A stretch of 41,230 nt of DNA from a virus: IMG/VR virus record IMGVR_UViG_3300045988_113036; one strand, written 5' to 3'. Below are positions 7,315 to 8,923 of this stretch, piece after piece. The position numbers were made by a program, and so were the translations under genes. Numbering within the stretch: the stretch's first letter is position 1; every line of letters starts with the position of its first letter. Below the pieces are notes generated by a model, which ran no database searches, was not told where the DNA came from, and saw nothing but the letters and a program-made list of their open reading frames with translations.

Positions 7315-7947
7315 ATGGGCGGACGAGGCGCAACCAGCAGCCACGGCAAAACCAAAGCCAAGGCAAAACCACTACAGAAAGGCCACCTCACCGCCGACGA
7401 AATCCCCAAAACGCCCGAAGAGACCGCCAAATACATCGGTTCGACCGTCCAGGAAGCCAAGGACATGTTCGACGCGGTGCAGGACTTCACGGCAAGCGCA
7501 TACTCGGGCATCAGACGCGCGCAACGAGGAGAGAAGGCGTCCGACATCCCCGAGCTGCAAAAGAAGTACGACAGCGAGGCCAAACGGATCGAAGGCTACA
7601 TCGAACGCGCGCCCAAATGGGGCGGCGGCGTCACCTACCGAGGTATGAGCCTCCCATCGTCCGTCGTCAAAGGGCTCACGGTCGGAGGAACGTTCGACGT
7701 CAACCTCGGCACCGCCTCATGGAGCACGCAGGAAAGCACCGCGCGCAGCTTCTCCAAGTCGGGCAGCGGCAGCAGGCACGTCGTGTTCGTCAGCCAAACC
7801 CAAAGCAAGGGCACCTCGATCAAACACATCAGTCACTTCGCCAAGGAGAACGAGGTGCTGGTATCCAAGAACGCGAAATACACCATCACCAACATCTCCA
7901 CCAAATCCGGCAGCCCATACACCTACGTCTACGTAAAGGAGAACTAG
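7315..7947 (+). CDS. ADP-ribosyltransferase, R-S-E (C3/VIP2-like exoenzyme) class, 210 aa
   Basis: Catalytic triad pattern in the right order and spacing: TYRGM (Arg), ASWSTQ (S-x-S/STS-like), KENEVLV (ExE). Gly/Lys-rich N-terminus MGGRGATSSHGKTKAKAK. Confidence 0.7.
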   Translation: MGGRGATSSHGKTKAKAKPLQKGHLTADEIPKTPEETAKYIGSTVQEAKDMFDAVQDFTASAYSGIRRAQRGEKASDIPELQKKYDSEAKRIEGYIERAPKWGGGVTYRGMSLPSSVVKGLTVGGTFDVNLGTASWSTQESTARSFSKSGSGSRHVVFVSQTQSKGTSIKHISHFAKENEVLVSKNAKYTITNISTKSGSPYTYVYVKEN

Positions 7948-7949
7948 AC

Positions 7950-8123
7950 ATGACCACCAAGAACACCGCCAAGAAGACCAGCGCCGACGAATGGTGGAAG
8001 CCACCGGTGCAGCGCACCCGCAGCCGCGCCGAAATGGCCGCACGGGCCAACGAGGACAGCCGCGCCTTCATCAAGGCCAACGCCAAGGCCCTCGGCCTCG
8101 ACAAGAAACAGGGCGGCAAATGA
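7950..8123 (+). CDS. Small basic protein, 57 aa
   Basis: ATG lies 2 nt after the ART stop, and its own stop overlaps the ARH start (ATGA). K/R-rich sequence. Confidence 0.5.
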   Translation: MTTKNTAKKTSADEWWKPPVQRTRSRAEMAARANEDSRAFIKANAKALGLDKKQGGK

Positions 8124-8923
8124 CCCACACGCTCAAAGACGCCCTTTATGGTCAGGCCGTAGCCGACGCGCTCGGCGTGCCCTACGAATTCCGCCGCCGA
8201 GGCACCTTCCACGCCACGACCATGACCGGCCACGGCACCCACGGCCAGCCCGCCGGCACATGGAGCGACGACACCAGCATGGCCCTCGCCGTCTGCGACA
8301 GCATCCGCCGCAACAAGGGGCGCATCGACCCGGACGACATCCGCCGACGCTTCGACGACTGGTACCAGTACGGCGAATACACCATCGACGGGCTATTCGA
8401 CATCGGCAACACCACCATCAAGGCCCTGCGGGCCGGCCACGGCATGACCGGCGAATACGACAACGGCAACGGCTCGCTCATGCGAACCATCCCCCTCGCA
8501 TTCACCCGCGCCACCGAAGCGCAGGTCGAACAGGTCAGCGCCATCACCCACGCCAACCCCACCAGCACCCGCGCATGCGCGCGTCTCGTCAACTACGCCC
8601 GCCAACTCGCCGCCGGACGCACGCCGCTCGACGCGATCGGGGAGGCCGGCTACGAGACGGCGCTCGCCGACGAGCCCGAGGGCATGATCCGTTCCGGCGG
8701 GTACGTGCTCGACACGCTCAAGGCGGCCGTCTGGTGCCTCGTCACCACCGACGACTACGCAGGTTGCGCGCTCAAGGCCGTCAACCTCGGCGACGACACC
8801 GACACCACCGCAGCGGTCGCCGGAGGCCTCGCCGGCATCGTCTACGGCATCGACTCCATCCCCGCCGAATGGATCGCCAAGCTGCGCGGCAAGGACGTCA
8901 TCGACGCCTGCCTGTTCGCCTGA
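8120..8923 (+). CDS. ADP-ribosylglycohydrolase (DraG/ARH family), 267 aa
   Basis: GQAVADALGVPYEF, WSDDTSMAL and LGDDTDTTAAVAGGLAGIVYG match the conserved ARH metal-binding motifs. Confidence 0.85.
   Translation: MTHTLKDALYGQAVADALGVPYEFRRRGTFHATTMTGHGTHGQPAGTWSDDTSMALAVCDSIRRNKGRIDPDDIRRRFDDWYQYGEYTIDGLFDIGNTTIKALRAGHGMTGEYDNGNGSLMRTIPLAFTRATEAQVEQVSAITHANPTSTRACARLVNYARQLAAGRTPLDAIGEAGYETALADEPEGMIRSGGYVLDTLKAAVWCLVTTDDYAGCALKAVNLGDDTDTTAAVAGGLAGIVYGIDSIPAEWIAKLRGKDVIDACLFA

Follow-up and report, generated by a model that had tools for sequence, protein, structure and literature searches.

The best-described counterpart of the gene cassette analysed here is Bxa, a toxin of a Bacteroides stercoris prophage in which an ADP-ribosyltransferase (ART) is fused to a MuF protein. 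Bxa ADP-ribosylates arginine and kills E. coli, and it is neutralised by two partners, the adjacent hydrolase BAH acting by catalysis and the small protein Bsi acting by binding; it has also been reported to make epithelial cells release inosine (Alexei et al., J Biol Chem 2024, PMC11699363). Here we describe a free-standing form of such a set in IMG/VR virus record IMGVR_UViG_3300045988_113036, a 41,230-nt stretch of DNA (hereafter the window) that holds a prophage of the temperate siphophage type with a GC content of 64%. We assign the prophage to Bifidobacterium because its ART gene is 94% identical to sequence in B. olomucense and 90% identical to sequence in B. imperatoris genomes. Three consecutive genes, encoding a predicted ART, a small basic protein and a predicted ADP-ribosylhydrolase (ARH), make up the cassette (Table 1), which we read, at a probability of roughly 0.55, as an immunity-protected arginine-ART effector whose modification the ARH erases.

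What the cassette shares with Bxa, BAH and Bsi is the set of parts: a prophage ART of the ExE type located by head or packaging genes, an adjacent ADP-ribosylhydrolase, and a small non-enzymatic open reading frame (ORF). We made the sequence comparison through a Porphyromonas phage005b homologue of Bxa (L008), which has the same layout, with a small ORF and an ARH adjacent to the gene for the MuF-ART fusion. The window ART is 38% identical to the C-terminus of the Porphyromonas protein, including a QK(G/R)HL lead-in. The two arrangements also differ in several respects. The ART is free-standing here and opens with an MGGRG leader, whereas the Bxa ART forms the C-terminus of a MuF protein; the genes here are co-oriented, coupled and upstream of the terminase small subunit gene terS, whereas those of the Bxa-type locus are convergent and downstream of muf; the ARH here belongs to the Tri1/Lmo0067/DraG subfamily; the two small ORFs are unrelated, that of the window being half as large; and the cassette here resides in an actinobacterial host. 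The Bxa precedent makes the cassette less novel and its reading as a toxin with an antidote stronger. It is not a new system, as Bxa-type sets are already known and the free-standing form is what differs; by analogy, it may work as a free-standing variant of a Bxa- or Tre1-type toxin with an enzymatic antidote, and it does not belong to the MuF toxin family.

Other described systems share parts of this design. Tre1 and Tri1 of the Serratia proteamaculans type VI secretion system (6dre, 6drh) are alike in their R-S-ExE chemistry and in protection by enzymatic reversal, but there is no PAAR or secretion domain in the window ART, and the ARH is without the ~70-residue plug of Tri1; a separate small protein may, by analogy, take over the blocking role. 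The Listeria monocytogenes pair in PDB entry 8za7 provides both the best sequence match to the ARH (Lmo0067) and one of the top structural matches to the ART (chain B). That pair is chromosomal and bacterial, not phage-borne, its effector-immunity role is supported by the title of the PDB entry alone, and we found no functional paper on Lmo0066/67 in the literature. The MuF polymorphic toxins of temperate phages (Jamet et al. 2017, PMC5576092) likewise combine a toxin module common to other toxin families, here that of Tre1, with a temperate phage and a small downstream ORF; the cassette, however, has no MuF or other carrier domain and the local VG15-family head protein is free of cargo, so that the fusion defining those toxins is absent. 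Elsewhere the same ART module does have carriers, namely Phage_Mu_F, NUDIX and XkdF-protease/Zeta-toxin proteins, and polyvalent head proteins have been described (Iyer et al. 2017, PMC5512222; 2022, PMC9503650). An earlier interpretation of the window from its letters and reading frames (the sequence-only reading) had noted that ART domains occur as MuF cargo, and homologous modules do sit on MuF, portal and polyvalent head proteins. T4 Alt, ModA and ModB are phage-encoded, arginine-specific R-S-ExE ARTs and structural relatives of the window ART, yet far more distant ones than its toxin-type relatives. Alt is packaged and injected by T4, a virulent myovirus that to our knowledge encodes no ARH partner. 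DraT and DraG, finally, are a co-operonic arginine ART and dimetal ARH; the window ARH keeps the E-D-D residues of DraG, but its context is not nitrogen fixation and its score lies under the DraG equivalog cut-off.

We compared the ART with known families by sequence, profile and predicted structure. The sequence-only reading had proposed an R-S-E triad in the order TYRG, SWST, ENE, and the three motifs occupy residues 107-110, 135-138 and 178-180 of the product, whose gene is preceded by the ribosome-binding site AGAGG. The protein scores 28.3 bits against the Pfam family ADPrib_exo_Tox (PF03496; cut-off 23.4, E 1.3e-6) and 20.8 bits against a related ART model (PF01129), just under the cut-off of 22.3. 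Pfam places no Phage_Mu_F domain in its 210 residues, NCBIfam returns no match, and no DraT model of either collection matches. It does match positions 829-979 of the 1440-position phrog_16619, labelled 'minor head protein' (E 3.5e-23). Searched against PDB sequences, a profile of the family made from 24 homologues finds the Vis toxin (E 5e-15) and Tre1 (E ~1e-3). The alignment to Vis (4xzj) sets R109, S135-W136-S137 and E178-N179-E180 on R, STS and EAE, the middle residue of the STS motif being Trp and not Thr in the window ART; the alignment to Tre1 sets R109 and E178-N179-E180 on R and EAE. R109, S135, W136 and E180 are invariant among the 24 homologues (alignment A1), and S137 and E178 are at least 90% conserved, with E178 changed to Gln only in two distant members.

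The structural evidence is of the same kind. An AlphaFold2 (AF2) model of the ART has a predicted local distance difference test score (pLDDT) of 87.5 and a predicted template modelling score of 0.80, and it is confident except at residues 3-15 (pLDDT < 50). A Foldseek search of the PDB with this model gave 131 matches at E<=1e-3, of which the best 50 are all ARTs; Vis (1.7e-11), Tre1 (3e-9) and the ART chain of the Listeria pair (8za7_B) stand at the top, followed by C3, C2-I, SpvB, Certhrax and ExoS/T. The identification made in the sequence-only reading is thus borne out by a Pfam score above cut-off and by profile and structural matches to Vis and Tre1: the model has the NAD-binding ART fold, and the predicted catalytic Arg and Glu persist in a proper alignment. 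Among predicted viral structures (BFVD), the best matches are ART modules in portal, minor capsid and head-morphogenesis proteins, and the T4-type RNA polymerase ADP-ribosylases rank lower, at E ~1e-6 to 1e-7. Together with phrog_16619 and the MuF, NUDIX and XkdF fusions, these matches argue that the ART is kin to head cargo. The ExE motif is a hallmark of ARTs that modify arginine (PMC8120803); from this motif and from the arginine specificity of the nearest relatives, Vis and Tre1, we infer that arginine is the target residue. The ratio of nonsynonymous to synonymous substitution rates (dN/dS) of the ART is ~0.2 between relatives, and the gene is under purifying selection.

A natural in-frame deletion fusion involving this gene was also observed. 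Protein P0012 (5001-5681 in L022 and L023; at least seven contigs in all) consists of the first ~100 residues of the ParB-DUF4417 protein and ART residues ~88-210; the deletion removes the DUF4417 domain, the leader and the N-terminal helices of the ART, and the small ORF and ARH are retained. Present in several samples, P0012 probably represents a circulating ART variant that has lost its activity.

The ARH, too, was recognised early by its ARH/DraG metal-binding motifs, which we locate at residues 21 (PYEF), 49 (SDDTS) and 224 (GDDTDTT). It matches the Pfam family ADP_ribosyl_GH (PF03747) over positions 2-287 of the 287 in the profile (E 1.2e-59; 202.8 bits, cut-off 26.2), and its best sequence matches in the PDB are Lmo0067 (8za7_A; 2e-39), Tri1 (1.7e-38) and DraG (7e-28). 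E23, D50/D51, D94 and GDDTDTT (224-230) align with the matching residues of DraG, Tri1 and Lmo0067, among which the roles of the catalytic E-D-D and metal-binding residues have been reviewed (PMC8120803). Residues 5-259 align with Tri1 72-348, and the ARH begins at the equivalent of Tri1 residue ~68-72, without the N-terminal extension of the Tri1 type. As it is the first ~70 residues of Tri1 that plug the active site of Tre1 (PMC8120803), any protection given by the ARH should be enzymatic only. It scores 156.9 bits against the Tri1 equivalog NF041672 (cut-off 490) and 121.2 bits against the DraG equivalog TIGR02662 (cut-off 337), and by these comparisons it is a relative, not an orthologue, of both.

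Several lines of evidence bind the two enzymes together. For both ART and ARH, the closest solved structures come from common complexes (6dre/6drh and 8za7), in which each protein matches one of the two chains; this lends independent support to a functional pair. In the window, the small-ORF start lies 2 nt from the ART stop and the ATG of the ARH overlaps the small-ORF stop (ATGA), in keeping with the translational coupling proposed from the sequence; this overlap, this spacer and the conservation of gene order support a functional link between the ART, small ORF and ARH. Our sample comprised eight free-standing ART lineages, with 34-60% identity to the window ART. The order ART, small ORF, ARH is found in five of the eight (the window group, L001, L006, L007 and L012), in ARTs that outside the window group are 38-60% identical to that of the window, and it always adjoins terminase genes. 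L005 differs in that 2 kb separate its ART gene from its ARH gene. The pairing of writer and eraser that had been noted in the window is therefore not a one-off, and its position just upstream of the terminase, also noted then, is confirmed by the identification of terS. Among some 30 more distant IMG/VR relatives, the ART module mostly sits on a large protein of 395-1157 aa, probably of the MuF type, and of all these the seed ARH profile detected an ARH in the Porphyromonas-type locus alone. As separate observations on gene content, L009 has three MGGRG-ART paralogues (298-954, 971-1627 and 2637-3326) with no ARH in view, its best-matching ART having QxE instead of ExE, and L011 has two tandem ART genes (63-563 and 605-1195).

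The rarity of ARHs beside MuF-ART fusions, most of which have none, might be taken to mean that the two enzymes are unrelated in function, the ARH countering host defence ARTs and the ART doing a separate job. Phage enzymes that remove ADP-ribose are indeed widespread and have been proposed to act in counter-defence (PMC9503650). We consider this separation highly improbable, as adjacency and coupling persist down to ~38% ART identity, each of the enzyme genes of L005 keeps a copy of the same small ORF, and the best solved relatives are, again, halves of common complexes.

The Lys/Arg-rich ORF that the sequence-only reading had placed between ART and ARH is likewise a recurrent component. A basic ORF of 39-58 aa with 10-15 Lys+Arg follows the free-standing ART in all inspected lineages except L009/L010. 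Its dN/dS of 0.55-1.0 exceeds the values of the ART (0.2) and the ARH (0.45), and its identity is only ~72% in loci where the proteins on either side match those of the window at 98-99%; it is a real, fast-evolving gene. We found only five close homologues among 5.8 billion proteins, and no family match in Pfam, PHROGs, NCBIfam or PADLOC, nor any match of the PDB type. The AF2 model, of moderate confidence (pLDDT 68), has one helix at residues 26-47 between disordered Lys-rich tails. L005 contains paralogous copies at 5698-5844 and 8609-8731, one before the ARH and the other after the ART, which ties the small gene to both enzymes. That the protein is a non-enzymatic inhibitor or partner of the ART is a tentative proposal, made from position and by analogy with Bsi, and the odds are somewhat against it. 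The general idea of an arginine pseudo-substrate was ruled out, because the L005 orthologue has no arginine.

The sequence-only reading had offered three roles for the pair, as a host-takeover, anti-defence or injected-effector module with its own antidote, and all three are compatible with the sequence. Taken as an immunity-protected effector, the cassette would operate as follows. The ART would use NAD+ to mono-ADP-ribosylate arginines of bacterial proteins, to the harm of the cell if unopposed. The co-transcribed and coupled ARH would strip ADP-ribose from arginine, protecting or resetting the cell that expresses the phage genes, and this protection would be purely enzymatic. The 57-aa basic protein would be a second, non-enzymatic partner, most likely one that binds and restrains the ART. 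The MGGRG leader would replace the fusion partner of an ART module that other phages attach to MuF, portal, NUDIX or protease head proteins, and would route or process the ART, most plausibly into the capsid for delivery to the next host, in which it would be active ahead of ARH synthesis. Toxicity of the ART and rescue by the ARH are expected by analogy with Bxa and Tre1; the packaging of the ART in the virion we hold to be doubtful.

The leader deserves closer attention. M1, G2 and R4 are at least 90% conserved in alignment A1, and M1, G2, G3, R4 and G5 are invariant in the narrower alignments A2, A3 and A4. In the form MGGRG(A/S/T/V)xS the leader occurs on the ART (7315-7338) and on unrelated small proteins, namely the products of a phrog_9479 gene in L001 (8329..8727), of ORFs in L011 (1458..1928) and L012 (103..507), and of a gene of Streptococcus phage A25 (3501-3911); the first 12 residues of the L011 protein are the same as in the adjacent ART. 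In these phages, which infect Actinobacteria and Firmicutes, all leader-bearing genes have a DUF4417 gene on one side and terS on the other, and members of phrog_9479 are found in Streptococcus, Dorea and Roseburia phages. The A25 protein, gp23 (L021, NC_028697.1), is annotated to start with MSDKGD, whereas an in-frame ATG 27 nt upstream yields MGGRGASSGMSDKGD..., so that gp23 would read MGGRGASSG... and agree with the leader conserved among its phrog_9479 relatives; the annotated start is probably wrong. We did not find the leader in loci L032-L062, which mostly hold MuF-type ART fusions, and a literature search for 'MGGRG' returned nothing relevant. Across genomes of different GC content the leader codons vary synonymously and the residues stay fixed; selection therefore acts on the peptide, and a nucleotide-level signal is ruled out by the same variation.

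The distal part of this region has its own distribution. QK(G/R)HL aligns within the Porphyromonas MuF-ART fusion and recurs in polyvalent proteins; (K/R)GHL precedes ART modules inside MuF and polyvalent fusions, and in polyvalent proteins a Gly/Ser linker plus (K/R)GHL stands ahead of each ART module. We also observed a motif, K(F/Y)NP(Y/H)H..G(R/K)F(S/T), before each module of polyvalent proteins, upstream of (K/R)GHL where the module is an ART, and at the N-terminus of some 260-aa ART proteins (seen in P0036, P0049, P0079, P0088, P0116 and P0164). It looks like punctuation between modules, perhaps a protease or docking site.

The MGGRG leader may be a targeting or processing tag. One homologue, P0056, starts with MLKLDLQLF followed directly by GGRGASS, and this start resembles a cleavable prefix of the L27/Prp type. 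Cleavage of the prefix would expose the same GGRG N-terminus. The host protease Prp is known to cleave the capsid and scaffold proteins of phage 80alpha (PMC5744158). In its fullest form, the proposal is that the leader is a general siphophage tag, in Actinobacteria and Firmicutes, that gives unrelated small proteins one fate, most plausibly procapsid loading and injection; its cargo would include the ART, phrog_9479 proteins such as A25 gp23, and others; and it would offer a carrier-free alternative to MuF fusion, with the ARH and the small protein guarding the producer cell. As a joint claim we think this rather unlikely. Two narrower ideas were set aside: Arg4 of the leader is an unlikely auto-modification site of the ART, given that the leader occurs in A25 with no ART in the 7.4 kb examined, and the leader is not tied to one terminase or portal type, as A25 and L009 have unrelated packaging genes.

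How the cassette is transcribed bears on whether it is cargo at all. Only 7 nt separate the end of the sigma-70-like promoter candidate from the ATG at 5698, a spacing that points to a leaderless message of the kind expected in actinobacteria. It is the sole promoter-like site in a scan of 4500..10000, where 0.7 are expected by chance, so that the count is not significant. The element is the same in nine related Bifidobacterium-phage loci, bar one spacer base in three of them, in intergenic DNA that is only 80-88% identical. At the other end, 22 nt before terS, lies an intrinsic terminator. A:U pairs and a single G:U pair lengthen its 7-bp G+C-rich core (GCCACCC/GGGUGGC, 8952-8969 including a CACG loop), and the element shows 100% conservation across six close relatives and 83-87% across a further three. 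We found this hairpin by folding (8920-8990: -29.9 kcal/mol, z = -3.3), and an automated terminator scan did not report it. A 3.3-kb unit of the Prim-Pol-like gene, the ParB-DUF4417 gene, the ART, the small ORF and the ARH thus appears to be distinct from the head operon, with the promoter at 5662..5690 as the likely start of a unit ending after the ARH. In other lineages the cassette continues into terS with small gaps.

This grouping of the cassette with Prim-Pol-like and ParB-DUF4417 genes, apart from terS and the head genes, would suit an ART that is never packaged but is made alongside the replication proteins in the infected or induced cell and takes over the host from within, in the manner of T4 ModA/ModB, by modifying host RNA polymerase, translation factors or defence proteins, with the ARH limiting or reversing the effect. 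The T4-type RNA polymerase ADP-ribosylases (phrog_832) are structural relatives, at the E values given above, and DraT/DraG exemplifies a co-expressed writer and eraser that can be regulatory (PMC8120803). However, the nearest relatives of the ART are toxin modules and head-cargo fusions, not Mod proteins; writer and eraser on one coupled message offer no obvious timing switch; the run-on into terS elsewhere undercuts the separation from packaging genes; and the conserved leader is left unexplained. We give such a takeover role perhaps a little over one chance in five, that is, we consider it unlikely.

The host range raises a different prospect, in which the ART is released on lysis and reaches neighbouring bacteria or animal gut cells, the ARH and the small protein having the sole function of letting the lysogen survive until then. 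The prophage ART Bxa shows just such dual behaviour and has protective partners of similar types (PMC11699363), and B. olomucense DSM 109959 and B. imperatoris Tam1G, both carriers of the cassette, are gut bifidobacteria. Yet no hydrophobic signal peptide or obvious uptake domain was noted in the ART, for which no dedicated signal-peptide prediction was run, and it is not evident how a free 23-kDa ART would enter another cell; we regard release as improbable. Still less probable is a DarT/DarG-like toxin-antitoxin or abortive-infection module that defends the lysogen and whose toxin is freed on infection by a competing phage. Writer and eraser would fit the logic of type IV-like toxin-antitoxin systems, the unit may have its own host-type promoter, and the loss of the ART N-terminus with retention of the small ORF and ARH in P0012-bearing contigs is compatible with a losable toxin. 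The PADLOC defence models, however, match none of the ART, small ORF and ARH, the genes are co-oriented in a lytic gene train beside the terminase in every lineage, the ART module is shared with virion proteins, and a toxin gene that comes first, an antitoxin that comes last and tight coupling make an unusual layout for such a module.

Against the immunity-protected effector itself, and against the delivery route added to it, stand several observations. The ARH is only 25% identical to the Porphyromonas (Bxa-type) ARH and belongs to a different subfamily. No ARH was seen with the ART relatives of L009/L010, nor with those of L011 as far as the contig shows, so that family members need not be paired with one. 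The small protein does not resemble the Bxa-like small ORF of Porphyromonas, our stand-in for Bsi, it is largely disordered in the AF2 model, and its high dN/dS could equally reflect weak constraint. The Prp-type prefix was seen in a single sequence, P0056, and the leader of phage A25, with no ART within the 7.4-kb region examined, is not ART-specific. Finally, an apparent promoter shared with replication-type genes and a strong terminator suggest expression apart from the head operon, which weakens the case for packaging.

The wider genome is arranged as replication-type genes, a tRNA-Ser gene and an HNH gene, leading to the short unit that ends in the cassette; then terS, terL, portal, the VG15 head protein, scaffold and major capsid protein; and then tail genes, a GH25/LysM lysin and an integrase (Table 1). 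The sequence-only reading had called the gene at 12290..13024 MuF-like and free of a toxin domain. The gene does occupy the MuF-like slot after the portal gene and Pfam finds no cargo or toxin domain in its product, but the family is VG15, not Phage_Mu_F. Its length varies: 244 aa in the window, 376 aa in L001 (12093-13223) and more than 431 aa in L007 (6860 to the end of the locus). The C-terminal extension in L001 has no Pfam match and could be another kind of cargo. In the window, L001, L005, L006, L007, L009 and phage A25, a DUF4417 gene is located one or two genes away from that of the ART or leader protein. This neighbour is often fused to a ParB N-terminal (CTPase-fold) domain, a fusion on which a 2025 preprint remarks only that it is enriched in phages (10.1101/2025.10.10.680097).

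Two further elements of the prophage lie outside the cassette. The tRNA-Ser (anticodon GCT) is at 4800-4894, between a terminator-like hairpin with a T-run at ~4763-4790 and an HNH-type ORF at ~5027-5388. A diversity-generating retroelement spans 27194-30436, with a reverse transcriptase ORF at 28841..30436 (Pfam RVT_1, E 4e-12) and an Rfam RT-19 RNA at 29023-29129 (104.5 bits). Its 108-nt template repeat (28879-28986) is 87% identical to the variable repeat (28642-28749), which lies at the 3' end of a 526-aa tail gene (27194..28774), and all mismatches fall on adenines of the template copy.

Table 1. Positions of the cassette, its predicted signals and neighbouring genes in the window.
Feature	Position	Strand	Description
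Promoter (candidate)	5662..5690	+	sigma-70-like: TTGTCA, 17 nt with TG, TATAGT
First gene of unit	5698..6255	+	185 aa; weak N-terminal Prim-Pol match (Pfam E 4e-4, below cut-off)
ParB_N + DUF4417 protein	6242..7270	+	Pfam DUF4417 E 5e-59; phrog_940 E 1e-89, PHROGs label 'nuclease'
ART	7315..7947	+	210 aa; predicted free-standing R-S-ExE mono-ADP-ribosyltransferase
N-terminal leader of ART	7315..7389	+	MGGRGATS (residues 1-8) through QKGHL (residues 21-25); residues 3-15 predicted disordered
Predicted catalytic residues of ART	7639-7641; 7717-7725; 7846-7854	+	R109; S135-W136-S137; E178-N-E180
Small ORF	7950..8123	+	57 aa, 14 K+R; ATG 2 nt past ART stop (TAGACATG)
ARH	8120..8923	+	267 aa; predicted DraG-like dimetal ADP-ribosyl(arginine) hydrolase
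Intrinsic terminator	8948..8976	+	stem 8948-8973, 11 pairs; UUUUCUU run 8970-8976
terS, terminase small subunit	8998..9423	+	Pfam Terminase_4 E 7.6e-5; phrog_83; opens packaging/head operon
VG15-family head protein	12290..13024	+	Pfam VG15 PF25310 E 2.9e-64, residues 1-214 of 244
Integrase	33337..34161		temperate marker

The leader is the part of the cassette most likely to repay experiments, as a handle on how tailed phages without carrier fusions choose non-structural effectors for delivery or other handling. Little work has addressed the accessory functions of prophages in Bifidobacterium species, which are key commensals of the gut; our literature search found nothing beyond a passing mention that links these prophages to ADP-ribosyltransferases. 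If the immunity-protected effector reading is true, the combination of a Bxa-type toxin and an enzymatic antidote would extend from the MuF fusions of Bacteroidota to a compact, free-standing form in Actinobacteria, and the cassette would provide a tractable three-gene system for studying how phages use reversible arginine ADP-ribosylation.

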